Below, one piece after another: positions 75 to 34,226 of a stretch of DNA of 49,283 bases; the first letter of the stretch is position 1; each line of letters begins with the position of its first letter. Under the pieces are notes generated by a model. The model made no database searches. It was not told the DNA's origin and saw only the letters and a program-made list of their open reading frames with translations. The stretch spans positions 1-49,283 of the forward strand of contig CAVALL010000001.1 in the NCBI GenBank assembly GCA_963589675.1, in the 5' to 3' direction. This DNA comes from Alistipes onderdonkii (GTDB lineage Bacteria; Bacillota_I; Bacilli_A; RFN20; CAG-288). The position numbers were made by a program, and so were the translations under genes.

Positions 75-833
75 ATGAAAAAAGAAATCAATTCGAAGTC
101 GAAAAGAAAATGGATCATGGGTGGTCTTGCCGCCTTTGCCTCAGTTGCACTGTTAACAACTGGTTTTGCAGTATGGATCGTTGGATCTTCCAAAACTGAT
201 GACAGCAAAGACGTCAATGTCACTGTTGATACAGCTAACAACAAGAGCATTGTCTTCACTTGGAATGCAGGTGCTGATTCCGCCATTGAATTAAAGGAAG
301 CCAGTGCTGTCACTGATGGCAAGATTGTCAATGTTTCCAGCGCAGATGATGTCGCCACTAATCCATTGCAGATTTCCTATGCTGCATCTACCATCACCTT
401 TGGTACTTCTTATGACTTCAAATTCAAATCTATTCAGTTCTCTATTGAGGAACCGAAAGCAGAAGGAACAGATTATGCTTCTGTCAAAGCAGTTGGAAAT
501 AAATTGACCGGCGACTATGCTCGTAAAACTGGTGATTACACATATATTGCTGCCCCTAAAGCACTTAGCATTGCAAGTTTGAATCCTGTTGAAAGTGGAA
601 ACACTAAAACAATCACTCTTCCTGCTGGAACCCTAGATTTCTCTTGGGGAACATTCTTCGATAGCGAATCTCCTGCTACTTTCTACAATACAAAGTATGC
701 AAACGAAGATGATCAGACTAAGTTAGCTAAGGCTGCTGATGAGATCACAACCGAATTGACTGATATGTACAAGCAGCTCAATGGAAAGAAAATCAAATTG
801 GTTGCCACCTTATCTGAGACTGAAGTTGCCTAA
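75..833 (+). CDS. Secreted protein, family paralog A, with SipW-cognate-like N-terminal signal; function unknown
   Basis: ORF 9..833. AAGGAG at 63-68 lies 6 nt before ATG 75. The N-terminus is a basic stretch (KSKRKW), then a hydrophobic helix ending TTGFAVWIVGSS, then DVNVTVD. The C-terminal FSWGTFF..P motif is shared with the next ORF. Confidence 0.6.
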   Translation: MKKEINSKSKRKWIMGGLAAFASVALLTTGFAVWIVGSSKTDDSKDVNVTVDTANNKSIVFTWNAGADSAIELKEASAVTDGKIVNVSSADDVATNPLQISYAASTITFGTSYDFKFKSIQFSIEEPKAEGTDYASVKAVGNKLTGDYARKTGDYTYIAAPKALSIASLNPVESGNTKTITLPAGTLDFSWGTFFDSESPATFYNTKYANEDDQTKLAKAADEITTELTDMYKQLNGKKIKLVATLSETEVA

Positions 834-848
834 TCGGAGTATTCAATC

Positions 849-1619
849 ATGAACAAGTTCAATAAAGGCAAAACCATTGGAATCGTTGCTGCTTCTTTAG
901 CCGCTGTTTCTGTGTTTGGTATTGGCTTCTCTACATGGATTATCAATACTACTACAAATAAAGTAGAAACGTCTGATATTACCGTTGTGGTAGCTGATAC
1001 AAAGGATATTTCCGTTATCATCAGCAATGCAAAGGTAAGCGAGTCTGATAATTCTGTGAAATTTGATGCTGATGAAGAGAAGATGAATAAAGCAACTGAT
1101 CATTTGCTATCTTGCAGCTCTGGTGATAAGGAAGATTTATCTTTCACTCTTACCTATGATGTCACTGTCGGTACCGATGCATCTGCATGGCAGATTAAGG
1201 CTGCTATTGATGATGGCACTACTGGTACAAATGGCAAATTCGAAACTGCAGTCAACACAAGAAAATATATTGCTCTTCCTTCTACATTAGGAATCACTAA
1301 TGGTGTTGAATGCTTGAACCAAGCTAGCAAGACTGATACTGATACTGGATTGACAGTCACTGCATCAACCACATCTGGTGCAACAAACAAGACCTATTCT
1401 ATTAGTCAGACCTTCACATTCTCTTGGGGGCTTGCATTTGCTAATAAGAATCCAGTTGAAGTTACTGGCGCCGATGAAATCTATACTCAGGGCGCAACTG
1501 ATGGTACTACTACCACAACTGCTACTCTTGATAATTTGACCGCCAATACAAAGAAAATGAAGGAATTAGGATTAGGAACGTTCAAAGTCATCCTTTCTGT
1601 CGGTGCAGTCTCCAAATAA
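849..1619 (+). CDS. Secreted protein, family paralog B, with the same N-terminal signal motif; function unknown
   Basis: ORF 849..1619, 15 nt after the upstream stop. N-terminus is MNKFNKGK, a hydrophobic stretch ending FGIGFSTWIINTT, then DITVVVAD. FSWGLAF..NP near the C-terminus parallels paralog A, and the size is similar (256 aa). Confidence 0.6.
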   Translation: MNKFNKGKTIGIVAASLAAVSVFGIGFSTWIINTTTNKVETSDITVVVADTKDISVIISNAKVSESDNSVKFDADEEKMNKATDHLLSCSSGDKEDLSFTLTYDVTVGTDASAWQIKAAIDDGTTGTNGKFETAVNTRKYIALPSTLGITNGVECLNQASKTDTDTGLTVTASTTSGATNKTYSISQTFTFSWGLAFANKNPVEVTGADEIYTQGATDGTTTTTATLDNLTANTKKMKELGLGTFKVILSVGAVSK

Positions 1620-1640
1620 AGGAATAACTAATCTGTCAGA

Positions 1641-2753
1641 ATGACAACTGTTGAAATCATCACTTTATTCATCACAATCTTATGTCTCATCAGTTTCTGT
1701 GCTGTCTTTACTATTCTGTTCAATCATTATTACAAATCAAATATTGAATCGGTGTCCTCTGGCAAGGAGGACATCGATTTGATTGATAATGCAATCGATG
1801 AAGAAAAAGAAAAGAAGAGTAAAACAAAGAAGACATGGAAACTGGTAGGTAAGATTTTTTCGTATGTTCTATTAGGTGTAGTGTTCTCGTTCTTTGTTTT
1901 CTCACTTGTCTCTAGGATTCAAGGTAATACGATGCTCTTTGGTAATTCTACCATGGTAGTCATTGCATCAGGTTCTATGTCAGAGAGAAATAATAATACG
2001 ATCAAAGCACATCCGGAACTGACCAATCAGTTTGATACTTATGACATCATTGGTATCAGTAAGTATCAGAGTCAGGATGAGGTTGCTTTATATGATGTCA
2101 TCGCCTATAAGAACAAGAAGAACGTTACGATTGTTCATCGTATCGTGGAAGTGAATAAGGATGAGAAGACAGGTACTACCACTTATCTGACACAGGGAGA
2201 CTCAAATCTCTATTCTGATAATACAGGTGGCTCACAATATACTGGATATCTTACCTATGATAAAATCATCGGTAAGTATGATGGTAGGAGAATCAAAGGA
2301 TTAGGTATCTTCGTTATCTTCCTTCAGTCTTCTGCTGGTATTGTCACAGTGTTATCTGTTGTATATTGTCTATTTATGTATGACTATCTCTCCAACAAGT
2401 ATAAGAAAGCAATTGTAGAGAGAACGAATATGCTCGTGAATCTGATTGACTATGATCTCAGTCATGAGGATGCAGATGATGTAGTCTCTAACTATCATGA
2501 GACACTCTTATACAAGAACAAGCTATACACTTTCCAGGATGGTAAATTCATCTCGAAAGAGGATAGCGATACCGAAATCACGAAACTGAATGATCATATG
2601 GTATTTGTGAAACGTGAGAATGGTACAATCACTATTACAGTGACAGATACAAGAGACAACACATCTAAAGTTTATGAAAATGTTTCTGAAGAAGACTCTA
2701 AGGATTTAAGTAAATTCATTCCTGATGATAAATCGGAAGAGAAAGCTGAATGA
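1641..2753 (+). CDS. Signal peptidase I, SipW/archaeal-ER type (S26B), with extra N-terminal TM and about 130-aa charged C-terminal tail
   Basis: Catalytic-box motifs are present: ASGSMSE (Ser box), TIVHRIVEV (His box) and TQGDSNLYSDN (GDNN-like box). There are two N-terminal hydrophobic helices and one after the catalytic domain, then a long acidic/basic tail. Confidence 0.75.
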   Translation: MTTVEIITLFITILCLISFCAVFTILFNHYYKSNIESVSSGKEDIDLIDNAIDEEKEKKSKTKKTWKLVGKIFSYVLLGVVFSFFVFSLVSRIQGNTMLFGNSTMVVIASGSMSERNNNTIKAHPELTNQFDTYDIIGISKYQSQDEVALYDVIAYKNKKNVTIVHRIVEVNKDEKTGTTTYLTQGDSNLYSDNTGGSQYTGYLTYDKIIGKYDGRRIKGLGIFVIFLQSSAGIVTVLSVVYCLFMYDYLSNKYKKAIVERTNMLVNLIDYDLSHEDADDVVSNYHETLLYKNKLYTFQDGKFISKEDSDTEITKLNDHMVFVKRENGTITITVTDTRDNTSKVYENVSEEDSKDLSKFIPDDKSEEKAE

Positions 2754-2770
2754 TATTAGGAGGTAGGAAA

Positions 2771-4600
2771 ATGCTCAAGACTCATTTGACGAGAAAGAAT
2801 CTCATCGGCGTTGCCATGATGTTCTTCTACGGCCTTTCGGTGCTGATTGCTGGACTTGCAATCGACGGCAACAATCCGGTGTTTGCAAAGAACAATCCAA
2901 TCCAGAACTTGGCGGCATCGATGTTCAAGGTAAAGGATATCAATGGAATCACGACAAAAGGTGTTCCGGCAGGATCGGTTCAAGCCTATATCATATTGAT
3001 TCTCTTTGTCATCTATATTGTTCTTTGTACAGCAGCTATCATTTATGAAGTTAGACTTGCAAAGTACTATGATGAGAATCCCTTATCCTTTAAATGGTGG
3101 ATGGTCTATATCATCACATTCTTAGTCTGTGGTGGATTGTGGACTGGTATCTCTATGGTATCCCAGATTTCGGATAAGCCTTTTGGATACTATATCGCTA
3201 ACTCCTATCTATTCTTACTTGAATCCATTGTCTTTGGTTTCATTGTCTTTGTTGTCTTAGGCTCCATCATCTTCAATGTCTGTCTCCTTGTCGTCAATTT
3301 CAAGAATATCAATAAGCCGTTTAAGTTCTTCGATGATTCCGAAGAAGAACAGAAGGCTGAACAGGAAAAGGAAGAAGAGGAGAAGAGAGCATTAGAGCAA
3401 GGTCAGCTTGCTGAATCCTTCGGTGAAGGTGGTTCCACTAATGGTGGAACGGTCTCTGGAGGTGCTTCTACTGTTGGTACAGATGATTCCTCTCCTTTAA
3501 AGGAGAAGGAAAGAGTTTTCCCAGGTCTTTGCTCTATCGACTATATGAACAGTGCTCTTCCTGTCGATAACTTCGAAGACGACTTATCCTTGAGTGAAAT
3601 CTGTGTCCGTTTCCGTAACTATTTAGCTGATAAGGAAGGATTATACTTCTCTCCTATCTATATTGAAGAATTCATCTCTGGTCTTGCAGCTAGCCGCTTC
3701 ATCATCTTAGAGGGTCTATCCGGTACTGGTAAATCCTCTCTTGCCCGTTACTTCTCTGAATTCATTTCCGAGAAATCCTACTTTGAAGCAGTCCAGGCTA
3801 CCTGGAGAGACCGTACCTCAATCTTAGGTTACTACAACGACTTCTCTAAGACCTATAACGAGACTGAGTTCTTGAAGAGACTCTATGATGCTACATATAA
3901 GAAGAATCATATCAACATCATGGTCTTAGATGAACTCAACATCTCCCGTGTTGAATACTACTTTGCAGACTTCCTCTCTGTCCTTGAATATCCTCAGGAT
4001 GAATGGAAACTGAAGATCATGCAGTTCCCGTATGACTTCGATGCTCCAGAACATCTTGAAGACGGTGTCTTACAGATTCCGGAGAATACCTACTTCATCG
4101 GTACTGCCAATAAGGATGAATCCACCTACACCATCACTGACAAGGTCTATGACCGTGCTATCACAATCGACTTCGATGATAGAAATGAGCCGTTTGCTGT
4201 CTCGGGTGATAGCGATAAGATCTCCTTATCCTATGCACGATTACAGGAACTCTTCTCTGATGCTATCAATAATGAATCCAACCAGCTCTCTATGGACGAA
4301 TACAAGAAGTTCAAGACTCTTACTGACTTTACCTATGATATGTTTGATATCACCTTCGGTAACCGTATCATGAGACAGATTCAGCTCTTTGTTCCTGTCT
4401 TTGTCGCTTGCGGCGGTGAGAAGAATGACGCTCTTGACTTCATGTTTGCTAGAAAAGTCGTCAGCAAATTAGAGGGTAGATTCGAAGACTATGTCAAGGA
4501 AGGACTTATCGATCTGAAGGCTTTGATCGTCAAGACCTATGGAGAGAACAGCTTCCCCCAGACAAGTCATATGATTGATAAACTCATCCGTAAACTCTAA
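2771..4600 (+). CDS. Membrane-anchored McrB-like AAA+ NTPase (4-TM N-domain, low-complexity linker, McrB-type ATPase)
   Basis: ORF 2750..4600; AGGAGG at 2758-2763 favours ATG 2771. The first about 190 aa contain four hydrophobic helices. An acidic/Gly-Ser linker follows (EEEQKAEQEKEEEEKR..GGSTNGGTVSGG). ATPase motifs are Walker A GLSGTGKSS, Walker B IMVLDELN followed by ISRVEYYFADFLSVLE, and FIGTANKDEST. This is the pattern I recognise from McrB/COG1401 ATPases. Confidence 0.7.
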   Translation: MLKTHLTRKNLIGVAMMFFYGLSVLIAGLAIDGNNPVFAKNNPIQNLAASMFKVKDINGITTKGVPAGSVQAYIILILFVIYIVLCTAAIIYEVRLAKYYDENPLSFKWWMVYIITFLVCGGLWTGISMVSQISDKPFGYYIANSYLFLLESIVFGFIVFVVLGSIIFNVCLLVVNFKNINKPFKFFDDSEEEQKAEQEKEEEEKRALEQGQLAESFGEGGSTNGGTVSGGASTVGTDDSSPLKEKERVFPGLCSIDYMNSALPVDNFEDDLSLSEICVRFRNYLADKEGLYFSPIYIEEFISGLAASRFIILEGLSGTGKSSLARYFSEFISEKSYFEAVQATWRDRTSILGYYNDFSKTYNETEFLKRLYDATYKKNHINIMVLDELNISRVEYYFADFLSVLEYPQDEWKLKIMQFPYDFDAPEHLEDGVLQIPENTYFIGTANKDESTYTITDKVYDRAITIDFDDRNEPFAVSGDSDKISLSYARLQELFSDAINNESNQLSMDEYKKFKTLTDFTYDMFDITFGNRIMRQIQLFVPVFVACGGEKNDALDFMFARKVVSKLEGRFEDYVKEGLIDLKALIVKTYGENSFPQTSHMIDKLIRKL

Positions 4601-4605
4601 AGGAT

Positions 4606-5991
4606 ATGGCCGATAGCAAAGATTTTCTTGTTGATTTCACCGATAAAATCAAGAATGAGATAGGAAACAAGCCTATCGGTTTTTATCATGCCTTAGATAC
4701 TCTTACCTATTACGAACCCTATCATTTTGATGAGGAGAAGAACAAGTTAGATGATTTGAAAAAGGTATCGGATAAGATCTTATCGATCCTTTATCATCCT
4801 GCATTTCATGCAGAGACGAGTGAAGTTATCCTTCGAAGCGAATTATCCGGAAAACTATCTCATGAATCCTTCTCCGATACGATGCAGGATCCAAAGCTCT
4901 GGAAAGAGAAGAACAGTAGAATGGTTCCGGAGTATGTCCATACTGTGGAGACTGTTGATAGCATCGATATCTATGAGAATAGATTCATCTCTCTTCTCAT
5001 CGATGAGATCAATGATGATATCGATACTTCCTTAGATGATATGACTCCGATGGTGGAATCCTTCTCTGAACATTATCAGAGCAATCAGTTTACTTTCGGT
5101 ACCTATTCTCCTTTAAGAGACATGAGAAAGAAGTATTATCCCTATACTTCCTTTATCCTGAAAGGCAATGGTTCGAAAGAGGAACTCTATGCCACAGCGA
5201 AGAGAATCAAGAGAAGAATGAAGAATATGAGAGGAACAGAGTTCTATAAGATTACTTCAAAGCATGAGATCTCTCATTCTATAAGACCTACCAATATCCT
5301 GATTCACGATAAACTGTATTCCTACTGCTATCGCTATTATGTATCTCATTATCGCAGTAAGGATATGGAAGAGAGAAAGAAACAGATTCTCTATTTCAAT
5401 TACTTCTTTACCTCTTTCCTTCATCTTTTGAAGAAGAGAGAACTCATCAAGGAAGAGAATATGCCTATTCTTTCCATTGATAAGGAAGACATGGTCTCTT
5501 TCTCTTCCTTCTCTATTGAACATTATCCCTTTACTCTTACATTTAAAGAGGATAAGAAGAATGTAGCACTGATAGTCGATGTTACGCTTCACTATGATAA
5601 AAGGGATATCAGCTCTACTTACTATCTCTTATGCCGAGATAAGTACAGTGAGAAGAATGCCTCCTCTATTTGTTCTATTCGTGATGAGAACTTGGATAAG
5701 AGATTTATCCTCATCACTCTAAACAATATCTTAAAAGACTACAATTCCACTCTTACCTTCTCTTATCGAAGAGAGAAGAATGAGATGCTATTAGATGACC
5801 TATTATCTTCGATGACAATTCTCATCGATGCGAATAAGGAGTTCTATACTGGATTTTGTCCCGTATGCGGAAAGAATGAAATCCGCTTCGATGGAGAGAA
5901 ATATATCTGTCAGAACTGCCATAGTGAATACGTGATGGATAAGATTGATGATGATACCCTGTTATGGATTCAGTCTTATCGAAAGGAGTGA
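4606..5991 (+). CDS. McrC/DUF2357-like partner protein with C-terminal CxxC-x13-CxxC zinc ribbon (tentative)
   Basis: Starts 5 nt after the ATPase stop. The segment DSIDIYENRFISLLIDEI resembles the conserved ENR-containing segment of McrC-type partners (from memory). The C-terminus is CPVCGKNEIRFDGEKYICQNC. I could not see a clean PD-(D/E)xK motif; the closest is LIVDVTLHYDK. Confidence 0.45.
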   Translation: MADSKDFLVDFTDKIKNEIGNKPIGFYHALDTLTYYEPYHFDEEKNKLDDLKKVSDKILSILYHPAFHAETSEVILRSELSGKLSHESFSDTMQDPKLWKEKNSRMVPEYVHTVETVDSIDIYENRFISLLIDEINDDIDTSLDDMTPMVESFSEHYQSNQFTFGTYSPLRDMRKKYYPYTSFILKGNGSKEELYATAKRIKRRMKNMRGTEFYKITSKHEISHSIRPTNILIHDKLYSYCYRYYVSHYRSKDMEERKKQILYFNYFFTSFLHLLKKRELIKEENMPILSIDKEDMVSFSSFSIEHYPFTLTFKEDKKNVALIVDVTLHYDKRDISSTYYLLCRDKYSEKNASSICSIRDENLDKRFILITLNNILKDYNSTLTFSYRREKNEMLLDDLLSSMTILIDANKEFYTGFCPVCGKNEIRFDGEKYICQNCHSEYVMDKIDDDTLLWIQSYRKE

Positions 5992-5996
5992 AATAG

Positions 5997-6800
5997 ATGG
6001 AAAAGCAAAACAATACATTTTCTCCTTTCATGAAGAACAAGGAGAAGAAAGAAGAAATCAAAAGAGAAGTGATTCTCTCTGTCACTGATCTTCATAAATC
6101 CTATGGAAAGAAGGAAGTCTTAAAAGGAATCAATATGGAAGTCTATAAGGGTGAAGTATTTGGCTTCATCGGTAAGAACGGTGCCGGTAAATCGACAACG
6201 ATTGACTGCATCGTCGGACTAAAGGACTTCAACGAAGGCAAGATCATCTTAAACGGACACAACGTCAAAGAGAATCCAATCGATGCTAAGATGTCGTTAG
6301 GATATGTGCCAAGTGAACCTGTGACCTATGAAGTCATGACGGGATTAGAATATCTTCAGTTTGTCGCTTCCAGTTACAATATGTATCAGGAAGCATTCGA
6401 TAAGAATTACGAATTTTTGAAGAACAAGTTCATGATCTCAGATGCCGACTTAAACAGAAAGATCAGAGAATACTCTCATGGTATGAAACAGAAGGTCTGC
6501 CTTATGGCATCTCTCATTCATAATCCGACTATCTGGATACTGGATGAACCGACTGTCGGTTTGGATATCATCGTCTATCAGACGCTCATGGATATGCTAA
6601 AAGAGTTTGCGAAAAACGGTAAGACTGTCTTCATCACATCCCATAATATCGACTTAGTTTCCCGTGTCTGTAACCGCGTTGCTATCATCAACAACGGTGT
6701 CGTTGCTGAACTGATCGACTTCAATAAGGAACCATTGAAGAGAAGAAATCTCAGCGAAATCTTCTTCTCTACCTATGCTGTTGAAAAGGAAGACAAATAG
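5997..6800 (+). CDS. ABC transporter ATP-binding protein
   Basis: Walker A GKNGAGKST, signature-like YSHGMKQK, Walker B IWILDEPTVGLD and H-loop ITSHN. Starts 5 nt after the upstream stop. Confidence 0.9.
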   Translation: MEKQNNTFSPFMKNKEKKEEIKREVILSVTDLHKSYGKKEVLKGINMEVYKGEVFGFIGKNGAGKSTTIDCIVGLKDFNEGKIILNGHNVKENPIDAKMSLGYVPSEPVTYEVMTGLEYLQFVASSYNMYQEAFDKNYEFLKNKFMISDADLNRKIREYSHGMKQKVCLMASLIHNPTIWILDEPTVGLDIIVYQTLMDMLKEFAKNGKTVFITSHNIDLVSRVCNRVAIINNGVVAELIDFNKEPLKRRNLSEIFFSTYAVEKEDK

Positions 6801-6812
6801 AAAGGACATTCG

Positions 6813-8432
6813 ATGTTTTTAGAACTGCTTCGAAAAGAGTTCATCGAGAAGAAGAGTCAGGAGAAACAGAGCACTTCTATGGTTGTTCTCTCCTATCTTT
6901 TACGTGGAATCCTTCTTGCTCTTTTCATTGCACTCGAATGCTATATTGCAATCGCTTTGGATAAGAAGATTGTCCAGTATTCTAGTTATGGATCATTTGA
7001 TTTCCTTGTCCTCTTCCTCTTTGTGATGATGGGACTGAATCTGTTATTCACATTAGTCAAAGCGAGAAAATCAATCTTTGATCATAAGGATAGTTCCGTT
7101 GTCCTTCCTCTTCCCATCTCTCCATCGACACAGGTATTCAGCAAAGTTGTTTATCTTTATATCGAAGCGATACTCTTTGCACTATTTACAAGCACACCAC
7201 TTCTTATCTGCTATGGAGTGAGTAGACACTATATCCCATACTATTACATCTTCTCTATCCTTTATCCGATTTTCATCTCGATATTCTCCGTTGGCATCTC
7301 ACTTTTGTTATCCATTATCTACCAGCAGATTTACAAGATTATCAAGAAGAGTGATATCCTTCAGTTCATCATGGCATGTGTGGTTGTTGTCTCAGCCTGC
7401 TACTTCTATCAGTTTGTATTGAATCTGTTCTTAACTGCTTTGAATGACTCTTCTATCGGTGGTGTCTTCTCTTCTGACTTTGTCGATGGATTACATAAGG
7501 CAAGATACTATTTCCTTCCTGTCTATCATCTGATGGACTCTGTGATTGAGAAAGGACAGTTAGCCAGTGACATTCTGATATTCATCGGTGCCTCTCTTCT
7601 TTCTGCTATCTTAGGTGTTTCTACGACTAGCCTTTGCTATTTCCACGAGATCAAGCTTGGTGAACACTCAGAGTCTAAGGCAAAGAAGAACAAGAATACA
7701 AAGTTACTTTCTCCATTCAAGGCATTAGTCAAGAAGGAACTGGATTTGTTATTCAAGGATGAGACCAATCTCTTTTCCTATACTTCCTTATTGATTTTAT
7801 GTCCGTTCCTTACCTTTGCTGTCATCTCTTCTTTGAATTCCATCATCTATGATAATCTTCGTTTCTATGCTTCCTATTTCCCAGAGTTAGTCTCTGGAAT
7901 TAATTTAGTTTTGATCCTTCTTTTCTCCGGTGTCATCAATGCGTCGGCATCCTTATCGATGTCGAGAGAGGGAAAGTCTCTTATCATCGTCAAGTATCTT
8001 CCTGTTTCCCCTTTGAAACAGATTTTAGCGAAGATTATCATTCCGATCTTCTTCTCTTTCCTCTCCTTATTTGTCACGGAGATTGTATTGATCTCTACAG
8101 GTATCATTACTCTTCCTGTCTTCTTCTCTTCTTTCTTTATCGGCACTCTTCTTCTTGTCTTTTCCAATGTCTTTGGTATCTACTGTGATATGCATGACAA
8201 AGAAGGAGAGAACAGAAAGGTAAAGCTCTCTGTCATCAATGACATCATTCCTCTTGTCCTTCCTCTTATCATCTTTGCTCTTTTCTTTGTCTTCTCTGTC
8301 TATGTCAGGATCCCGTCATGGTCCTTATATCTGATTGCATCTCTATTCTCTCTTCTTGTCTTATCTCCTTCCTTCTTTGCTTTGAAGAAGAGATATCAGA
8401 AAGCATTCGTGAAAATGGAGGTGAGCAATTAG
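6813..8432 (+). CDS. Polytopic membrane protein, putative ABC exporter permease partner
   Basis: 539 aa and almost entirely hydrophobic helices (at least 10). It sits immediately downstream of the ABC ATPase. There are no other recognisable motifs. Confidence 0.6.
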   Translation: MFLELLRKEFIEKKSQEKQSTSMVVLSYLLRGILLALFIALECYIAIALDKKIVQYSSYGSFDFLVLFLFVMMGLNLLFTLVKARKSIFDHKDSSVVLPLPISPSTQVFSKVVYLYIEAILFALFTSTPLLICYGVSRHYIPYYYIFSILYPIFISIFSVGISLLLSIIYQQIYKIIKKSDILQFIMACVVVVSACYFYQFVLNLFLTALNDSSIGGVFSSDFVDGLHKARYYFLPVYHLMDSVIEKGQLASDILIFIGASLLSAILGVSTTSLCYFHEIKLGEHSESKAKKNKNTKLLSPFKALVKKELDLLFKDETNLFSYTSLLILCPFLTFAVISSLNSIIYDNLRFYASYFPELVSGINLVLILLFSGVINASASLSMSREGKSLIIVKYLPVSPLKQILAKIIIPIFFSFLSLFVTEIVLISTGIITLPVFFSSFFIGTLLLVFSNVFGIYCDMHDKEGENRKVKLSVINDIIPLVLPLIIFALFFVFSVYVRIPSWSLYLIASLFSLLVLSPSFFALKKRYQKAFVKMEVSN

Positions 8433-8433
8433 T

Positions 8434-10854
8434 ATGAAAAAGCGTACTTTAGCATTCCTTCTCATCATTCCTTTCATCATCTCCTTACTCACTTTTGTGT
8501 CCATCAAAATCCTCGACAATCAGGTTGCTGTCGATATTTTAGGTATCGAATGGAACTATCAGGAGAACGAAGGATTCCAGATCGATGAGAAAGGATATGA
8601 ATTGAAGGCTACTCCAATCGTGGATCCCAATCTCATCCTTGCTAATGGAAATAATCTTGTCTGGTCCACCAAGAAGGTGAATGACAGTGATGATGAATAC
8701 GCAAAGGTAGAAGAGGAGAACGGAAAATATTATCTCTATGCCTTAAAGCCAGGTGAAGTAGAAGTCATCTGCTCCAATGAAAGAGGAAGCAAATCCAAGC
8801 ATTTCCTAGCTACAATCTTCGAAGATGGTGCCATGGTCATCAATCCAAAGAGAAAAGGAAGCGGAAGCTCTGTCACTTCCAATAAGTATTACGGATTGTA
8901 TGACTATGAGAACGAAGACAAGGTCAAGGCTAGCTTTGATCTTGTGACGACTGCCTATTATAGCGATAGGGGTACTAGCGTTAAGAATATCCTTGTCGAT
9001 TGCTCTAGCAATATCACATACGAGAATGGAACAGTATCTGTTCATTCTGCGGGTGATAGTTATGTAACCTTGGAAGAGCCGGATTATCATTACCGTGCCA
9101 CTTACACATTCAAGGTCATTGACGGTGTCAATGTCTACTCTTACTCTGATTTATTGTTAGGTACAAACAAGTCTCAAAGTGGTGAGAATATCGTCATGCA
9201 GGTCAATTTAGAGTCGTTGAAGAATACCTATACTTACGATAGTACAACTGGAAAATATACGGACGAAAAGTTATCAACTAGCAAAGACAATACAGAGCTC
9301 TTTGGTAACTTCGACTTCACTAGTCAGACATTCTCCTTTGATCAGGAATATTACACCTTTGAGACGACCTATGATTCTACCTATATCGATCAATACAATA
9401 GGGAGAAATATACGGATGTCTCTAAGGATGTCATTGCTGGCATCCATTTGAAGAAGGGATTATACGGAAACGGCTTTACTATCAACATGAACGGATTATG
9501 CTATCCGAATCATGGTGAGATCGATAAATATACGGGAAAGAGAGTGCCGAAGAAAAAGAGTGAAGCCAAGAAGGGTGAAGCCTATGACTACTTCTATGGT
9601 CCGCTTCCCTTTGTTGCTGTCGGTGATATGGTATCATTCCCATTAGTCACTGCCTTAGGACAGGATAACTGTGGAATCTATATCGATGATGACAATGTCA
9701 TTATTGATGATGTGAAGTTATCCAATGTTGATGAAGTCGATAATCTCTATAATCTCTCTTATACAGGAAGCATTGTCGATGTGAAAGGCAAGAATGCGAC
9801 AATCCGTAATTCTGTCCTCTCCAACGGCAAAGTCTGTGTAAGAGCATATGACAGCGATAATCTACTTATCGATAACTGCATCTTGAAGAACTCTGGTGAA
9901 TTCACACTCCTATTAGGAAGTGATAAGAAGGATAGTTATGATGCATCTAGAAGAGTGCAGGATTACGGTATTGATAAGTCCTATTCTGAATTCTTCGATG
10001 ACTTGGATGAGAGTAAACAGGATACCGCAAATGGTGTCCTAAATGCCTTCTTGAATGCGACGATGGCTGGTACCTTGAAAGAGGGAGACTATAAGACACA
10101 ATTAGAACTGATTCAGAAGTATCTTGATACGGATACAAATAGCGGATATGCAGCGAATATCACAGTCAACAATACATTCTTCGGACGCTCTGGTGTCTTC
10201 TCAATAGCCTTTGAATCGATGTTCAATGGACCTCTCCTCTATGGCGGTATCCCGACGATGCTGACAAAGCTATTAGGCAGTTATCTCAATGCTCCTCTTC
10301 CGGAAAAGGTCGGTGGAACAAGTAGACCGGTCCATCTCACATTGAAGGGTGATACAAGATTCTATGATTGGAAGGACATCGATAGTATCGATGTATCTGC
10401 GCTCATTGAAGAGAATATCTCCCGTACTCTGAATCAGATGGGATACGGAAACAAGAACGTTACGATCGATGATATCTTCCCAATGAAATCAGCTCTGAAG
10501 AAAGAGTCTCAGACAAAAGGTCTTATCTATACCAAAGATGATAAGAGCTTTGTCAATACTGCCATTGCCTACTATGGTGGTGGCATGAATAACTCCGCTA
10601 TCGATATTGAAAGTGATACGACCTATAACAGCTATAGCGATGAAACGATTGTCTCATTGCTTGATGAGACGATTGAGAACAATAAGGGCGGTGGATTATC
10701 ATCACTTTTTGTCGATTGTGTCATTGTCACAATCGGTACCCATCCATTCCGGTTCATCACCAATGGAAGTGAAGAGAAGACAAGCCCTAGATTATTCGAT
10801 CAGGTTCCCGCGATTGACGGATTGAAGAAACATGTTCAGGAGGTAACAAAATGA
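8434..10854 (+). CDS. Signal-anchored exoprotein with Ig-like segment and right-handed beta-helix-like repeats
   Basis: N-terminus is MKKRTLAFLLIIPFIISLLTFV. The segment LKPGEVEVICSNERG is Big_2-like. The stretch NATIRNSVLSNGKVCVRAYDSDNLLIDNCILKNSGEF is typical of parallel beta-helix (pectate-lyase-fold) repeats. Confidence 0.5.
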   Translation: MKKRTLAFLLIIPFIISLLTFVSIKILDNQVAVDILGIEWNYQENEGFQIDEKGYELKATPIVDPNLILANGNNLVWSTKKVNDSDDEYAKVEEENGKYYLYALKPGEVEVICSNERGSKSKHFLATIFEDGAMVINPKRKGSGSSVTSNKYYGLYDYENEDKVKASFDLVTTAYYSDRGTSVKNILVDCSSNITYENGTVSVHSAGDSYVTLEEPDYHYRATYTFKVIDGVNVYSYSDLLLGTNKSQSGENIVMQVNLESLKNTYTYDSTTGKYTDEKLSTSKDNTELFGNFDFTSQTFSFDQEYYTFETTYDSTYIDQYNREKYTDVSKDVIAGIHLKKGLYGNGFTINMNGLCYPNHGEIDKYTGKRVPKKKSEAKKGEAYDYFYGPLPFVAVGDMVSFPLVTALGQDNCGIYIDDDNVIIDDVKLSNVDEVDNLYNLSYTGSIVDVKGKNATIRNSVLSNGKVCVRAYDSDNLLIDNCILKNSGEFTLLLGSDKKDSYDASRRVQDYGIDKSYSEFFDDLDESKQDTANGVLNAFLNATMAGTLKEGDYKTQLELIQKYLDTDTNSGYAANITVNNTFFGRSGVFSIAFESMFNGPLLYGGIPTMLTKLLGSYLNAPLPEKVGGTSRPVHLTLKGDTRFYDWKDIDSIDVSALIEENISRTLNQMGYGNKNVTIDDIFPMKSALKKESQTKGLIYTKDDKSFVNTAIAYYGGGMNNSAIDIESDTTYNSYSDETIVSLLDETIENNKGGGLSSLFVDCVIVTIGTHPFRFITNGSEEKTSPRLFDQVPAIDGLKKHVQEVTK

Positions 10855-11963
10855 AAAAAAGATTATTCAAAAGGATGATGCTGCTTGTAGCAGCTTTGAC
10901 TCTATCTTCACCTTTAGCTTCCTGCGCCTTCTTTGATACAGGAAGCGGAACACAGATCAAGGATGTCATCACAACCTATGATGATTCAACCGGTAATACG
11001 ATTGTCACTATCACCTTCACAAGTGATGATACTTCTCCGGTCTCTTTCAGCATTCCTCGTGGTATCTCGGGTAAAGATGGAGTATCCATCAAGAATGTCA
11101 CATCCCGTATCTCTGACGATGGTAATAGCATTGAACTCACTATCACCTATACCGATAGTAGTGTTGAAAACACGGTTATCTCTGTTCCTGTCTTACAGGG
11201 AAGAGGTGTCAAGGAAGTGTTGGTCGATAAGGATGAGGATGGAAATCCTACCATTCAGTTCATCTATAACGATAATACCAAAAGCTCTGTCATTACGATT
11301 CCAAGCGGTAAAGACGGTAACGGAATTGAGAGCTTTGAAGTCTCTGATCCCGATTCAAGCGGTAGAATGTCTGTTGTCATCAAGTTTACAGATGGCACAT
11401 CTACTACCTTTGAGATCAAGAACGGTGTCTCTGTCATGAATATCACCTACAATGATGAAAAGTCTGATTCAACTCATTATGTTCTGACTGTCACTTATTC
11501 AGATGGATACAGTGAAGATATCACCTTGGATAGACCTCGCTCGAACCATTGGTATACAGGTACAACGGCACCGGAGAAGGATGCTGTTGCCTCTTCCGAG
11601 GCAACAGAAGGTGACTTCTATCTCAACCGTGTCAATGGATACGTCTATCAGAAGGAGAGCAATGGAAACTGGACATTCCTCTTTGGTATGAAAGCAGATT
11701 CTTCCTCAGAAGAAAAAGTCTATCATACGGTCTTCTTTGATCCTGGTCTTGGTAAGATCAATGGTAATTCCAGTATCCTGATGTCTACTGTATTAGAGGG
11801 TAAGACAATGGATTTATCCGCTATTCCGACTCCTACCTATGATGATCATACCTTCTTAGGCTGGTATACGGATTTAGAGAATGTCAATGCTGGTAAGTTT
11901 ACGGATTTGACTCCTGTTATGTCTGATTTGAAGTTATATGCGAAATATCAAGCAAATAACTAA
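10851..11963 (+). CDS. Lipoprotein with tandem about 50-aa repeats, fibre-tip-like segment and C-terminal Listeria-Bacteroides (Flg_new) repeat
   Basis: ATGA start/stop overlap with the upstream gene. Lipobox is LASC. The repeats follow the pattern I-K-x-V..T-I-T-F/Y-T..I-P-x-G-x-x-GKDG (GISGKDGVSI, SGKDGNGI). GDFYLNRVNGYVYQKESNGNW resembles phage tail-fibre/collagen-like tip motifs. FLGWYTD...LYAKY is the Flg_new signature. Confidence 0.65.
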   Translation: MKKRLFKRMMLLVAALTLSSPLASCAFFDTGSGTQIKDVITTYDDSTGNTIVTITFTSDDTSPVSFSIPRGISGKDGVSIKNVTSRISDDGNSIELTITYTDSSVENTVISVPVLQGRGVKEVLVDKDEDGNPTIQFIYNDNTKSSVITIPSGKDGNGIESFEVSDPDSSGRMSVVIKFTDGTSTTFEIKNGVSVMNITYNDEKSDSTHYVLTVTYSDGYSEDITLDRPRSNHWYTGTTAPEKDAVASSEATEGDFYLNRVNGYVYQKESNGNWTFLFGMKADSSSEEKVYHTVFFDPGLGKINGNSSILMSTVLEGKTMDLSAIPTPTYDDHTFLGWYTDLENVNAGKFTDLTPVMSDLKLYAKYQANN

Positions 11964-12019
11964 ATCCGATATGGTAAAATAGTCACATTATATCTATACA
12001 TGGAAAGGAGGATAGCAAG

Positions 12020-12764
12020 ATGAAACGTAGGAAGAAAAACATCACAATCATTCAACCTTATCAGATACCATCTATCTGCCTCCTTTTGTCTGTCTCCTCA
12101 CTCTTTGGTATCGGGTTTGCAACCTGGTATGATACGGGGGGGGTTGAGAACTGAAGCAGAAAGCGTTACTGTCACTGTAGGAGAAGTTGTTTTAAACGAT
12201 ATTAGCCTAAAAGACTTTGGTTTTGATGTAGTTAGTGGAAGTACTACAAGCATTACAACATCAAAGCGATTAAGCGATGATGATGAATCAGTGACAGACA
12301 CTTTATTGAATTCTCATTGCGTATCTGTTAAAGCAACTGTTGATACCAATATTATGGGTAAAGCGGATTATTACGATGATCTTTATTTATCCATTTCTTT
12401 TGCGTATGAAGGTTATAGCAGTACGACAAATAACATCATTGAATCTCTAACTCTTTATCCAGAGAACTACGTTGGATATTCTTTTGATGGTATTAAGTCA
12501 AGTAAGACGACTCAAATGAAGAACGGAAAAACGACACTGTTTTATTTTCCAATGAAATCCCAAAATGATATTTCATTATCTTCCGTTGCTTTGATAGATA
12601 CAACATATCCAAAAACGAATATTCATAGTACAACTGGATTTGATTATAAAGTTCCGATCGTTTTTGAATTCACAATTGATGAGGATACATTGAATTCTGA
12701 ATTGGCGAATTCTTCTGTTAAATACAGTGTTACTTTTTCATTAGCTGAAGGAACAGCTAATTGA
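12020..12764 (+). pseudogene. Third member of the about 250-aa secreted family, frame-interrupted at a G8 tract (phase-variable gene or pseudogene)
   Basis: AAGGAGGA at 12005-12012 lies 7 nt before ATG 12020. The first frame reads MKRRKKNITIIQPYQIPSICLLLSVSSLFGIGFATWYDTGGVEN and stops at 12152-12154. With one fewer G it continues as ..DTGGLRTEAESVTVTVGEVV.. into ORF 12105..12764, giving about 247 aa. Confidence 0.75.
12136..12143 (+). repeat. Homopolymeric G8 tract at the frameshift point
   Basis: Read directly: gatacGGGGGGGGttgag. It is the only long G/C homopolymer I noticed in this AT-rich window. Confidence 0.95.
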
Positions 12765-12775
12765 GGAAACTTGTA

Positions 12776-15472
12776 ATGAAAAAGATTTCTTTGATTGCAA
12801 AACTATCCTGCGCTCTTGGAATGTTATTGACTATTTTTGGCGTCATTGGTTTTTCTGATTATATTGCAGACACAATAAATACTTCAGATAAGACTAGTGT
12901 CAAAGACAATGCCGTTGATGATGGTGAAATGGTTACGTTGAGTTTCAAGTATGCGGTTTGTACAGGTTCGAAGATAGTCAAGCAAGATGAGACTACGGAA
13001 ATATTATCAAATACAATTAGTTCGACGGATAGAAAGAGCGATGCTGCAAAAACAAAATATTATGCTTTGTTTGACTGCTTAGAAAAGTATGTTGATGCAG
13101 ATGAATGCCCTGAACGTGAGACTACATTTAAGAAAGGAGAAACGTTTACTTATACTGGGATCAATGAATATTCTGGATATTATGTCATTCTTAATGTTAC
13201 TCAAAAAACATACCATAGTTCCTACACCTTGGCTGGGAAAACTTATGATAATTATTATGGTGCATATACTATATCCGTACAAAAATACGATATTGTTACT
13301 AGTTATGACTATTATGACTATGCGATCAAAGATAAGGTGGAAGTGAATAAAAATACAAAATTTACACTCACCGATTTGTATGGGATTATATCATTGGCCA
13401 CTGATGATAATTACAAGTTGGTGGGACTTGCTGAAGAGACGACAGAAGGCAAGCCAAGTGGAACGATAGTTTCATTGCCGTTGCAAGTTAGTGCTTCCGG
13501 CACTTATTACGCACTTTTCAATAAGACGAGTATGGATGGGAAATATGTTTTGGGAAAGACAATCTCTGGTTATACTACGAAAGGGACGTATACATTTAAT
13601 GCTCAGGTTGCTCAAAATGAATTTAATCTGACCAATGATGCTTCTTATTATGCGACAGATAAAGTTGTATTTCTCGGTGATAATTCTTCGACGATAACAA
13701 CATCAGGTGGACAAACTGCCGTTGGGACAAAAATCTCATCAGATGTAACAGTTAATTTTGGTTTGAATAGTGGCGATGTTTTTGTGAAAACATCCTCATC
13801 GATAAATACTAACGATCTTGAACCTGAAGATACTGAACATTCAAGACAATATACGGTTTGCCTGCAATCTGACTTGTATGTTTATGGAACTCTTGCTATT
13901 GGTGCAAACTGCGGTACAACGAACAACACCTATTATGAGGGACATATTTGTAATGAGTATGTGGCTTTAGATTTGAATGGTCACAATATCTATTTGGAAA
14001 ATGGCACTCTTAATATATATGGCTTAATTAAAAATTCAAAAGATGACGGAGAAATAATTTCATATGGCGGAGAAATTAATACTCTAGCAGTAATTTATGA
14101 TTATCGCGGAGGCAATGCAACGACATCGCTTGTCAATCAGAAGGTTATGCCGTTTCAGATTTATTCATTGCCTTATTTTAGGTGCAAAGCTCGTCTTTGC
14201 TATTCATCGGATTATGGGTGGACGCAGTTTAATGCTGTTTGTTATGCGACTGTCGCTAAACTCTTAGGTGCGCCAGTACCTGTAACTATTAAGATCAATT
14301 TTATTGGCGGTTTGGATGATGAGGTTCTATTCAAAATAGCTGAACAGACAGACTCTTATGTTGAAATCGAAGGCTATAAAAATGATAAAGTCACTGAAAA
14401 TAAAGAAATCTCTAGTGATGAGGTTAAACTGTGTTTGTCTCAAAGATTAAAAATCACTTTTCGTAATTGCTCTGTTAAGATGTCAAATATTGAGATGGAC
14501 ATTGCTTCAGGTTACAAAGTGAATACAAAGGACTACAATTTCCCTGTCTCTAGCTTCTTTGATATTTTGCTGGTAAATACTGATTTGACTTTCTCACAGT
14601 CACTAAAGATGATGCCAGGAATGTCCTTTATCGCTGATAAAGATAGCAATGTTATCCTTTCTTATGATTCCACTAACAAGAAATCAGCACAGATATCTGT
14701 TCTTGGAGAGAATGCCTATTATTATGATTCTGAAAAAGAAACGATGGTAAAGAATGATCTTATTGCAGAAAATCAATTAACATTCACTGCATCATTCTTT
14801 AAATCCGAATCATTGTGGAAATATTATAGTGGTAGTCGTTTTAAGATTTATGGAACACTTGTATTTCAAGGTGGTAATGCTGATATAAGAGAATATCTAT
14901 TAGCTGGGCAAATGGATTTCAATCGTGTTGCATATTCTTCGGATGGAACAACATCCAATCTCGAATATATAGAGTTTTCTGAAAATGAAAATCCATTTGC
15001 AAAGCTAATGGAAAAACATAGTGATGTAAAGATACTCACATATGGATATGATTATTTGCTTGGCAGTTCAGACTTAAAGGCAGTCATCAAAGGATATTCT
15101 CGTCCATTAGTTTCTTATGGTAAAGGTTATTATACAAATGGTAGTTCCGCTGATGCTAAAGTCGGAGACTATAGCTTCAGAACAGGAATATTCAAAGTCA
15201 GTGATACTGAGATGTATTACTTCAACATTGGTGAAACCTTTACCTTAAGTGATAATTCAACCTGCTCATTAGAACCTTGTACCTATGATGAAGCAGAGCA
15301 TACTTTTACGGATACAAAAACAAATACAAAGTATGCATACTTTGCTTCTTCCTATTATCCGTATACAAATACAGATGGAACAATAACTCTGAATGTGACT
15401 AGATCTAATTCATCAACGACATCCGTTACTGTTGTATATAATTCGACATTGGATCGTTGGCTGAGGAAATAG
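12776..15472 (+). CDS. Large secreted protein of unknown function with related N-terminal signal motif
   Basis: ORF 12761..15472; GAGGAA lies upstream of ATG 12776. N-terminus is MKKISLIAKLSCALGMLLTIFGVIGFSDYIADT. The sequence is rich in Thr/Ser/Asn/Tyr, with beta-rich repeats such as LDLNGHNIYLENGTLNIYGLI. Confidence 0.6.
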   Translation: MKKISLIAKLSCALGMLLTIFGVIGFSDYIADTINTSDKTSVKDNAVDDGEMVTLSFKYAVCTGSKIVKQDETTEILSNTISSTDRKSDAAKTKYYALFDCLEKYVDADECPERETTFKKGETFTYTGINEYSGYYVILNVTQKTYHSSYTLAGKTYDNYYGAYTISVQKYDIVTSYDYYDYAIKDKVEVNKNTKFTLTDLYGIISLATDDNYKLVGLAEETTEGKPSGTIVSLPLQVSASGTYYALFNKTSMDGKYVLGKTISGYTTKGTYTFNAQVAQNEFNLTNDASYYATDKVVFLGDNSSTITTSGGQTAVGTKISSDVTVNFGLNSGDVFVKTSSSINTNDLEPEDTEHSRQYTVCLQSDLYVYGTLAIGANCGTTNNTYYEGHICNEYVALDLNGHNIYLENGTLNIYGLIKNSKDDGEIISYGGEINTLAVIYDYRGGNATTSLVNQKVMPFQIYSLPYFRCKARLCYSSDYGWTQFNAVCYATVAKLLGAPVPVTIKINFIGGLDDEVLFKIAEQTDSYVEIEGYKNDKVTENKEISSDEVKLCLSQRLKITFRNCSVKMSNIEMDIASGYKVNTKDYNFPVSSFFDILLVNTDLTFSQSLKMMPGMSFIADKDSNVILSYDSTNKKSAQISVLGENAYYYDSEKETMVKNDLIAENQLTFTASFFKSESLWKYYSGSRFKIYGTLVFQGGNADIREYLLAGQMDFNRVAYSSDGTTSNLEYIEFSENENPFAKLMEKHSDVKILTYGYDYLLGSSDLKAVIKGYSRPLVSYGKGYYTNGSSADAKVGDYSFRTGIFKVSDTEMYYFNIGETFTLSDNSTCSLEPCTYDEAEHTFTDTKTNTKYAYFASSYYPYTNTDGTITLNVTRSNSSTTSVTVVYNSTLDRWLRK

Positions 15473-15474
15473 CG

Positions 15475-16200
15475 ATGTTACCAAGTATATGGAAGATACC
15501 ATCTTTGATATTCTTTTGGGTGATTGGTATCATTGTTAGTGTCGTTTATTATGTGCTGACATCTAAGAAATATCAGAGGAAATGGTACATTTCTCTCCTA
15601 TTAGGTTTTGTAATGATTATCCTTGAAACATTTGCAGCTAAGATTATGTTTCTTATTGAAAATCCATCATCTATTAAGGACGGTATTTCATGGAAAGGCG
15701 GATATTCTCTTTTTGGCGTGTTTTTCTTCTGTCCCTTGTTTTTATTGCTATTATCTTGGATACTGAAAATTCATTATTTGAACCTGATGGATTTCCTTGT
15801 TCCAGGTATTTTAATTGAACTATCACTTTATCGTATCGGTTGTATGTGTGCAGGCTGTTGCTATGGTATAGAGGTGGGATGGGGAATTACAAATGGAACA
15901 ATGAATGGATTATTCCCTGTTCAACCAATAGAAGTAGGATTGGATCTTATTACATTCTTATTGATTCATATCCTAATGACTAAGGATAAGTTAAGAAGAG
16001 GAGAAGCTTTCTATATAACCTATATCTCTTATGGTCTTATCCGTTTCACTATGGAATTCCTAAGACATAGAACAAATGTAGTAGGTATATTATCAGCCAG
16101 TCATTTCTATGCTCTTGCTATTCTGATATTTGGAACTGTAATGTTGATCTATTCAAGAACGCATAAAAAGAAAGAAAGGGATGAGGCATCACATCTTTAA
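15475..16200 (+). CDS. Lgt-family (prolipoprotein diacylglyceryl transferase-like) membrane protein
   Basis: ORF 15457..16200; ATG 15475 lies 2 nt after the upstream stop with GAGGAA upstream. It is polytopic. Motifs SWKGGYSLFG, YRIGCMCAGCCYG and FPVQPIEVGLDL match conserved Lgt blocks (W-GG, GR-G..G, P-Q-YE) as I remember them. Confidence 0.55.
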   Translation: MLPSIWKIPSLIFFWVIGIIVSVVYYVLTSKKYQRKWYISLLLGFVMIILETFAAKIMFLIENPSSIKDGISWKGGYSLFGVFFFCPLFLLLLSWILKIHYLNLMDFLVPGILIELSLYRIGCMCAGCCYGIEVGWGITNGTMNGLFPVQPIEVGLDLITFLLIHILMTKDKLRRGEAFYITYISYGLIRFTMEFLRHRTNVVGILSASHFYALAILIFGTVMLIYSRTHKKKERDEASHL

Positions 16201-16271: not shown

Positions 16272-16312
16272 AACGATAGGATCAGAATCTTACCAATCCT
16301 ATCGTTATATTT
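16272..16312. terminator. Bidirectional rho-independent terminator between convergent operons
   Basis: 11-bp stem aacgataggat / atcctatcgtt (16272-16282 and 16296-16306). It is followed by atattttta on + and by tttgttt on -. Confidence 0.7.
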
Positions 16313-17854: not shown

Positions 17855-17855
17855 A

Positions 17856-20764: not shown

Positions 20765-20797
20765 TGTAAATTCCTCCTTTTTTGAATATGCAATGTT

Positions 20798-27823: not shown

Positions 27824-27853
27824 AAGGGAATGTTCAATTTGATATATGACAGA

Positions 27854-29665: not shown

Positions 29666-29694
29666 TGTACATTCATGTACATATATGCTATAAT
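29666..29694 (+). promoter_or_regulatory. Candidate transposase promoter (TGTACA-17 nt-TATAAT)
   Basis: -35-like TGTACA at 29666-29671, a 17-nt spacer and TATAAT at 29689-29694. GGAGGTG lies before ATG 29717. Confidence 0.35.
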
Positions 29695-29716
29695 AGAATA
29701 TACCGGAGGTGCATCC

Positions 29717-34142: not shown

Positions 34143-34226
<84 letters not shown>

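Follow-up and report, generated by a model that had tools for sequence, protein, structure and literature searches.

McrBC is the textbook nucleoside triphosphate (NTP)-dependent restriction motor, and GTP-specific hydrolysis by a hexamer, stimulated by an McrC partner, is a trait of the McrB family. McrB assembles as a hexamer into whose ring the N-terminal domain of McrC inserts (PDB 6hz4; Niu et al., 2020, as summarised in PMC11090510), and McrC stimulates hydrolysis via a conserved basic residue that touches the signature Asp (Niu et al., 2020, as summarised in PMC11090510). A major branch of McrB is defined by a deletion that converts the NxxD signature to NxD (Bell et al., 2024, PMC11090510, section 7), and CoCoNuT and CoCoPALM belong to this branch (Bell et al., 2024, PMC11090510). 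In CoCoPALM, an NxD GTPase is fused to an FtsB-like transmembrane (TM) segment and a coiled coil, occurs with signal-peptidase-family genes, and is predicted to act in pilus assembly; the system was treated in one paragraph, with its analysis deferred (Bell et al., 2024, PMC11090510). No follow-up on CoCoPALM was found in the searchable literature. Here we analysed a membrane-anchored McrB-like ATPase and its McrC-like partner, encoded at 2771..4600 and 4606..5991 on the plus strand of a 49,283-nucleotide (nt) stretch of DNA (contig CAVALL010000001.1; hereafter the window). The best explanation, to which we assign a probability of roughly one half, is that an NTPase pair derived from McrBC has been taken over by a cell-envelope operon, in which it would help to process or assemble a surface fibre or coat.

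The open reading frame (ORF) of the ATPase opens at 2750 (616 amino acids), and 2771..4600 is the likely gene because the ATG at 2771, its probable start, lies 8 nt past an AGGAGG and the called homologs are 609 amino acids long. An earlier note on this DNA, made from the sequence alone, had recognised McrB-type motifs here (GLSGTGKSS and FIGTANKDEST), and translation confirmed them: the protein carries a Walker A motif, LEGLSGTGKS (3707..3736), a Walker B motif, NIMVLDE (3914..3934), followed by LNISRVEYYFADFLSVLE, and the signature IGTANKDEST (4097..4126), all within an AAA+ module at 3518..4597. GLSGTGKS and IMVLDE are invariant in 24 diverse relatives and conform to the Walker A (GxxGxGK[ST]) and Walker B (hhhhDE) patterns. 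Pfam AAA_5 was matched just at threshold (22.2 bits, cut-off 22). The best match among PDB sequences was the AAA+ domain of E. coli McrB (6hz4; expectation value (E) 1e-3), which was the sole AAA+ protein among 8 matches, and a family profile built from the 24 relatives aligned to residues 175-413 of E. coli McrB with an hhalign probability of 96.8% (E 2e-10). This alignment puts GTANKDEST opposite GLMNTADRS of E. coli McrB; the signature is therefore of the NxD form, one residue shorter than the NxxD signature of McrB. Its N447 and D449 are invariant in every relative examined. Thus, the ATPase is an McrB-family AAA+ protein of the NxD-signature branch, and both the profile alignment and the best PDB match place it inside the McrB clade. 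A MoxR- or dynein-type AAA_5 identity was rejected, given that the top sequence and profile matches are to McrB; MoxR and dynein were compared via Pfam AAA_5 alone. A genetic code in which UGA encodes Trp was likewise rejected, as every long ORF is intact under table 11. Set beside E. coli McrBC (6hz4), the window pair shares the AAA+ fold, the Walker motifs, the position of the signature and a partner with the McrC N-terminal domain directly downstream. It differs in that the signature is NxD rather than NxxD (NTAD), the ATPase has no N-terminal DNA-binding domain, and the partner lacks the D-D-x-K catalytic residues.

Upstream of the AAA+ module, hydropathy analysis (Kyte-Doolittle) delineated four hydrophobic segments, at residues 16-40, 70-105, 118-137 and 148-187 of the 616-amino-acid ORF, which make up a four-TM domain (2795..3310). 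A 69-residue linker follows (3311..3517), acidic and then Gly/Ser-rich, with 18 Asp/Glu and 16 Gly/Ser residues. Hydropathy and composition thus agree with the earlier description of four hydrophobic helices in the first ~190 residues followed by an acidic/Gly-Ser linker. The four-TM architecture is kept among relatives and its sequence is kept poorly, with D32 alone reaching 87% conservation. The near lack of sequence conservation in the four helices points to an anchor and not to a channel, and a role for the domain as a conserved channel or sensor was rejected on this ground.

The ATPase has more than 5,200 homologs at E ≤ 1e-3, and an exhaustive search against representatives at 50% identity returned 8,140 matches at E ≤ 1e-3, 704 of them at E ≤ 1e-30. 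N-terminal architectures were sorted among the best 150 representatives. About 46 of these have a four-TM N-terminus and lie nearest the query; in about 31, one or two TM helices precede a charged helical stretch (460-530 amino acids); and about 59 are soluble proteins of 700-870 amino acids with coiled-coil N-termini. The same AAA+ module is common to all three architectures, and the Walker A, Walker B and GT.N.D.ST columns are invariant across them. In a quick neighbor-joining tree of 136 representatives, limited to this top-150 set and built without support values, the four-TM class lies across the midpoint root from the one-TM and soluble classes. The proposal that a membrane anchor stands in place of a DNA-reader domain is upheld as far as the four TM helices go, but not as a simple swap, since the nearest relatives have one TM segment and a coiled coil, or long coiled coils.

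The partner gene starts 5 nt past the ATPase stop at 4600 and encodes 461 amino acids. Its N-terminal part matches Pfam DUF2357 (PF09823, the McrC N-terminal domain) over 4798..5052, at 24.8 bits against a cut-off of 23.3, in a region that includes a W99-K100-x-K102 hairpin and the segment YENRF (4972..4986). The search for homologs gave 64 at E ≤ 1e-3, and 30 sequences with 26-74% identity to the window protein were aligned. DUF2357 is matched by 25 of these 30 (best E 1.8e-9). Invariant positions in the DUF2357 region and the helical middle of the protein are I61, S78, T92, W99, K100, K102, P108 and E109, together with Y123, E124, N125, F127, N230, L232 and Y238. The AlphaFold2 (AF2) model of the partner (predicted local distance difference test (pLDDT) 86, predicted template-modelling score 0.79) places strands at residues 99-102 and 105-108, and its longest helix spans ~26 residues. 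Further on, an alpha/beta domain (5470..5835) is modelled as beta-beta-beta-beta-alpha-beta. In the alignment of 30 homologs, residues 289-410 contain neither a conserved acidic position nor a conserved Lys, and none of the 30 matched a nuclease family in Pfam. This domain may be a degenerate PD-(D/E)xK fold. The protein ends in a C4 zinc ribbon, CPVCGKNEIRFDGEKYICQNC (5857..5919), of the form CPVC-x13-CQNC, in which all four Cys are invariant; zinc-ribbon matches in Pfam and the PDB were below threshold. By these sequence features the partner is McrC-like in its N-terminal domain and gene position, and has no nuclease active site. The features read earlier from the letters, namely a gene 5 nt downstream with YENRF and a terminal ribbon, no intact PD-(D/E)xK motif, a relationship to DUF2357 and, with the matches to 6hz4 described above, an McrB-like and McrC-like pair, all held up. 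The combination of DUF2357, an inactive nuclease-like domain and a CPxC ribbon has been seen in several McrC homologs of the NxD branch (Bell et al., PMC11090510).

CoCoNuT systems (CnuB/CnuC) and the PADLOC candidate PDC-M26 resemble the window pair in their NxD GTPase module, which is 30-34% identical to the window ATPase in full-length alignment. CoCoNuT also has an McrC homolog with DUF2357, an often inactivated PD-(D/E)xK fold and CPxC zinc ribbons. However, CoCoNuTs are soluble proteins with long coiled coils that invariably occur together with HEPN or other nucleases, and RNA is their predicted target. In the window system a TM-less form, a long coiled coil and a nuclease partner are all absent.

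The pair lies within a single plus-strand operon, 75..16200, in which genes overlap or are separated by gaps of a few bases; the gaps between the signal peptidase gene, the ATPase, the partner and the following ATP-binding cassette (ABC) gene are 17, 5 and 5 nt. The gene whose stop lies 17 nt ahead of the ATPase start (1641..2753, plus strand) encodes a SipW-type (archaeal/endoplasmic reticulum-type) signal peptidase I of 370 amino acids. Its matches to NCBIfam SipW (E 2e-11) and to TIGR02228 (E 1.3e-10) fall short of the curated cut-offs. In an alignment of 64 homologs, Ser112, Met113, His166 and Gly186 never vary and 60 sequences keep Asp187, so that the boxes SGSM (with the catalytic Ser), HR (with the His) and GD.N are kept, and the enzyme appears from its sequence to be catalytically intact. 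The genes that follow the partner, all on the plus strand, encode an ABC transporter ATP-binding protein (5997..6800; Pfam ABC_tran, E 8.8e-27), a permease with ~12 TM segments of the ABC_tran_2/12TM_1 type (6813..8432; Pfam PF16949, E 6.4e-10, with PF09847 carried by homologs), an 806-amino-acid protein that begins with an anchor or signal and contains a beta-helix region (8434..10854; Pfam Beta_helix, 23.3 bits, below cut-off), and a putative lipoprotein with the lipobox LASC and a Listeria-Bacteroides repeat (10851..11963; Pfam Flg_new, E 2.8e-8).

At the head of the operon are two paralogous genes for small secreted or anchored proteins, of 252 amino acids (75..833, plus strand) and 256 amino acids (849..1619, plus strand). 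The first has an N-terminal hydrophobic signal with TTGFAVW, a conserved VNVTVDTA segment, a beta-sandwich and a C-terminal helix; the second, with the signal GIGFSTW, aligns with it and with the tandem paralogs of related loci. In the alignment of this family (297 homologs), G30 and F195 are invariant, W34 is near-invariant, and V49, V51, D52, T53, A54 and N56 are kept in ≥90% of sequences. The AF2 model of paralog 1 has a pLDDT of 82 overall, of >90 from residue 55 on and of <50 at residues 9-52. Its confident part is the beta-sandwich with the C-terminal helix, and the unmodelled stretch holds the signal and the conserved segment just past it. No match to these proteins was found in Pfam, in NCBIfam (which would cover SipW-cognate signals) or among PDB sequences. 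The best Foldseek matches were the chaperone-usher pilins FimA and FimI, non-significant at E 0.075. A TasA-like or pilin-like identity was rejected, with no PDB profile match and no significant fold match, and is kept as an analogy.

This analogy is with the SipW fibre systems (B. subtilis tapA-sipW-tasA and C. perfringens sipW-bsaA-bsaB-bsaC), which likewise combine a dedicated Ser/His-type signal peptidase with paralogous, secreted, beta-rich subunits whose signal is specific to the family and whose N-terminal segment is flexible. For TasA and BsaA this segment is a donor strand that inserts in the neighbour's sheet, leading to polymerisation (PMC9674648, PMC11580942). By analogy, the features of the small proteins are compatible with donor-strand polymerisation, which is no proof of it. 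The two kinds of system differ in that the window subunits fall outside the Peptidase_M73/TasA fold by Pfam, PDB profile and Foldseek, and in that TasA and BsaA work without an NTPase, whereas the window operon adds a membrane AAA+ pair and an ABC exporter.

To define the conservation of this arrangement, one genome per GTDB species was scanned for two conserved peptide patterns, which gave at least 593 loci, of which 80 were kept; ORFs were called in all kept loci and searched with hidden Markov models made from the window-type proteins. Synteny was counted over the 48 species-level loci whose ATPase has ≥3 N-terminal TM segments, with denominators limited to loci with enough flank. The McrC-like gene is adjacent downstream of the four-TM ATPase in 47/47 loci, and the SipW-like gene is adjacent upstream in 42/45. 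Small paralogs lie upstream, in 1 to 7 tandem copies, in 37/40 loci. For the downstream module, the ABC ATPase is present in 37/39 loci, and the permease, the beta-helix protein and the lipoprotein in 36/39 each. The gene order of the operon is thus kept in ~45 species-level genomes of uncultured gut Bacilli, and the same order is found at 57% ATPase identity and at 26-33% partner identity. Four loci have the lipoprotein gene directly past the McrC-like gene, with the block of ABC, permease and beta-helix genes ~4.5 kb further on. The hosts are uncultured gut or rumen Bacilli and "Mollicutes" metagenome-assembled genomes, e.g., Candidatus Enteromonas, Enterosoma and Scatosoma.

CoCoPALM is alike in having a membrane-anchored NxD McrB-type GTPase, a DUF2357 McrC homolog and an adjoining signal-peptidase-family gene, and both systems are predicted to serve surface-filament assembly rather than restriction. 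Loci of the CoCoPALM type were recovered from Eubacterium ruminantium FB3002 (L062) and Ruminococcus sp. FC2018 (L073); hosts of the one-TM class as a whole are Ruminococcus, Eubacterium ruminantium FB3002 and Erysipelotrichaceae. Often, a one-TM locus adjoins a bona fide SipW gene (TIGR02228, 90 bits), its McrC homolog is long and forms a coiled coil (DUF2357, 38 bits), and its secreted proteins bear the signal GTATYAWF, which is TasA-like. In the cultured E. ruminantium FB3002 (L062:7672-17351), two SipW genes flank the one-TM GTPase, the coiled-coil McrC homolog is 764 amino acids long, and the secreted proteins with the GTATYAWF signal have a C-terminal VWLEGEDANC motif. There are also differences. 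The window ATPase has four TM helices and the acidic/Gly-Ser linker of 69 amino acids instead of an FtsB-like single TM segment and coiled coil; its partner has 461 amino acids against 520-998, with long charged helical inserts, in the one-TM class, and is without a coiled-coil insertion as judged from its AF2 helices; a third TM segment is present in the SipW-like enzyme; and the operon adds a fixed module of ABC exporter, beta-helix protein and lipoprotein, and another putative substrate family. In the quick tree the four-TM proteins lie apart from the one-TM CoCoPALM-type clade, and the window system is best read as a further variant of this described but uncharacterised kind and not as something categorically new. 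The originality implied by the earlier note, which had noticed neither the NxD variant nor the operon context nor the CoCoPALM precedent (PMC11090510), has to be reduced in this respect: with that precedent and the NxD branch published, the system is less unprecedented than it had seemed.

In the mechanism that we propose, a hexameric ATPase ring would sit on 24 TM helices at the inner membrane face with the McrC-like protein plugged in, and the partner's invariant K100/K102 hairpin would play the stimulatory role. Hydrolysis of NTP (probably GTP) would drive or gate the hand-over of membrane-anchored precursors to the SipW-type peptidase, and the processed subunits would polymerise or be deposited as a surface fibre or coat, with the ABC exporter, the beta-helix protein and the lipoprotein as accessory envelope components. 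Bell et al. (2024, PMC11090510) made the same prediction for CoCoPALM, to which the window system is related. A more specific form of this proposal can be advanced only tentatively: the ring with its nuclease-dead McrC would be the energy core of a surface-filament pathway, with SipW-processed beta-sandwich subunits that are possibly joined by donor strands, and its locus would be a core locus in RF39-like gut Bacilli.

Several points weigh against a role in fibre or coat assembly. The small proteins have no significant sequence or fold likeness to TasA, camelysin or any pilin, and their cleavage by the SipW-like enzyme is assumed. For the partner, hhalign of its profile against E. coli McrC gave no alignment, and Foldseek of its model against the PDB gave nothing significant. 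The two top matches, YdjA of the B. subtilis BsuMI system (9a5m, E 7e-3) and E. coli McrC (6hz4_M, E 3.7e-2), are both McrC-type proteins and both weak; given the missing alignment, the likeness to McrC therefore rests on Pfam DUF2357, gene position and these top Foldseek matches. We know of no experiment on an NxD-type McrB, and the closest soluble relatives of the ATPase (CoCoNuT-like; PDC-M26A) are predicted defence systems. Since McrC fills the pore of the ring in McrBC, threading or extraction in the manner of other AAA+ unfoldases is not obviously available. Finally, loci L038, L045, L050 and L051 carry the pair without a detectable SipW gene or ABC exporter module, which means that the pair can work in other contexts; in L038 an unrelated ABC fragment lies ~9.5 kb downstream. 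At this last locus (L038:8137-12515, Bacillales bacterium UBA6449), the four-TM ATPase/McrC-like pair adjoins a different multi-TM protein of 393 amino acids, located upstream.

In our judgement the pair is unlikely to be a membrane-associated defence or conflict system, an McrBC derivative of the CoCoNuT/CoCoPALM type. Such a system would detect phage attack at the membrane and act on it with its peptidase, exporter or surface proteins; it might remodel or shed receptors, or bring about abortive infection through the membrane. In its favour, the McrBC family as a whole is known for defence (PMC11090510), the closest soluble relatives of the AAA+ module are coiled-coil NxD GTPases, the PADLOC candidate PDC-M26A matches this module (E 3.2e-36), and the small paralogs vary in copy number, diverge fast and include one with a frameshift in a G8 tract, reminiscent of phase variation. 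Against this, no nuclease, toxin or other recognisable effector was detected by Pfam or PADLOC, the partner has no PADLOC match of any kind, and the ten-gene order is rigid over ~45 species. The operon is flanked by housekeeping genes and not by a mobile defence island; the rest of the window holds Big_2 surface proteins, a CE2/GDSL esterase, a sugar ABC importer, a SpoU methylase, RmuC, flavin adenine dinucleotide-dependent oxidoreductases and an M24 peptidase. Nor was a full-length mobile copy found: when the ATPase was searched by tblastn against 72,556 plasmids and 50,697 phage records, no place covered ≥80% of the protein, and the matches were confined to the AAA+ module at ≤39% identity. 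A canonical nuclease motif together with a defence-island context would have marked an ordinary restriction variant according to the earlier note, and neither turned up in the alignment, the flanks or the plasmid and phage search. Its proposal of a repurposed, non-restriction motor thus agrees with the context, namely synteny, housekeeping flanks and the lack of full-length plasmid or phage copies, and is not thereby demonstrated.

It also seems improbable, to a similar degree, that the pair is a regulatory NTPase switch or quality control device that gates the SipW-type peptidase or the ABC exporter without powering assembly. Secretion might then, for instance, be tied to nucleotide status, or to a cytoplasmic signal that the zinc-ribbon or degenerate nuclease domain reads. 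The SipW-like enzyme has three TM segments, a cytoplasmic loop of ~35 amino acids and a cytoplasmic tail of 70-200 amino acids (~120 in the window protein), and this loop and tail could contact a cytoplasmic ring. The poor conservation of the four-TM domain is as expected of a mere anchor, and threading of polypeptides is not known for McrB rings whose pore holds McrC (6hz4). However, the case for a switch is purely contextual, no sensor domain is recognisable, and a switch is here indistinguishable from an assembly motor.

Classical restriction is unlikely, and a type IV restriction variant located at the membrane and directed against incoming DNA, with the zinc ribbon and degenerate nuclease fold binding DNA and an unrecognised nuclease supplied in trans, is hardly credible: the McrB-like and McrC-like ancestry fits it, and nucleic-acid binding has been suggested for zinc ribbons and inactivated PD-(D/E)xK folds (Bell et al. 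on CoCoNuT CnuC, PMC11090510), but the hallmarks of type IV restriction (a modified-DNA reader, an active nuclease, and a defence-island or mobile context) are absent, there is no catalytic motif in the partner and no nuclease gene anywhere in the conserved operon, and every conserved neighbour is an envelope or secretion gene.

If the pair does serve the envelope, a large, vertically conserved clade without DNA-handling parts would show the AAA+ module of McrBC reused for envelope biogenesis, and if the filament pathway is also correct, this would be the exaptation of a restriction motor into a new class of pilus machinery. The context is more telling in this regard than the protein pair alone, and is partly anticipated by the CoCoPALM literature. 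Many uncultured Bacilli of the human and animal gut carry the operon, and its fast-evolving small subunits are candidate adhesins or antigens. The cultured one-TM carriers, Eubacterium ruminantium FB3002 and Ruminococcus sp. FC2018, open experimental access.

The distal part of the operon encodes further putative surface proteins. A third small paralog with the signal GIGFATW (12020..12764, plus strand) is frameshifted by +1 in a G8 tract at 12136..12143, and seven G would restore the frame; its ortholog in locus L023 is intact and has no G run. The frameshift may have arisen in the assembly, or it may mark a surface protein that is switched by phase variation (a contingency switch). The next gene (12776..15472, plus strand) encodes an 898-amino-acid protein with the signal GVIGFSDY and without a Pfam or NCBIfam match; it is a possible large subunit or adhesin, which the SipW-type peptidase would process as well. 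A long hydrophobic stretch that ends in G-F-[AS]-x-[WY] is common to the signals of the small proteins, the third paralog and this protein. The last gene of the operon encodes a prolipoprotein diacylglyceryl transferase, Lgt (15457..16200, plus strand; Pfam LGT, E 7.6e-23), and in locus L001 a gene with an LGT match lies directly past the lipoprotein gene.

The operon start was judged on a 97%-identical relative (L091), the exact sequence of the window ATPase not being on record. There the operon begins with the first small gene, past an intergenic region of ~500 nt. On the other side of these ~500 nt is a divergent gene for an XRE-family helix-turn-helix protein (L091:5997-6815), a candidate regulator of the operon. 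In a scan for promoters and terminators, counts within the operon were at chance level and one element alone stood out: a hairpin with a 14-bp stem past lgt (16272..16306), between this gene and the convergent minus-strand gene 16313..17854, which is probably a bidirectional terminator for the two.

Beyond the hairpin, a minus-strand run of large genes (16313..26028) includes Big_2 immunoglobulin-like surface proteins, the CE2/GDSL esterase and two ORFs, of 966 and 777 amino acids, without a family match. It is followed by the sugar ABC importer at 26032..29296. The stretch around an ORF for a DDE_Tnp_1 transposase (29675..31492) has 54% G+C, against ~40% elsewhere in the window, and this ORF is probably an insertion sequence of foreign origin. 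An RmuC-family protein is encoded on the minus strand at 35664..37271 (E 9.8e-66) and is unrelated to the ATPase pair. Near it lies a tRNA-Leu(GAG) gene (34143..34226).

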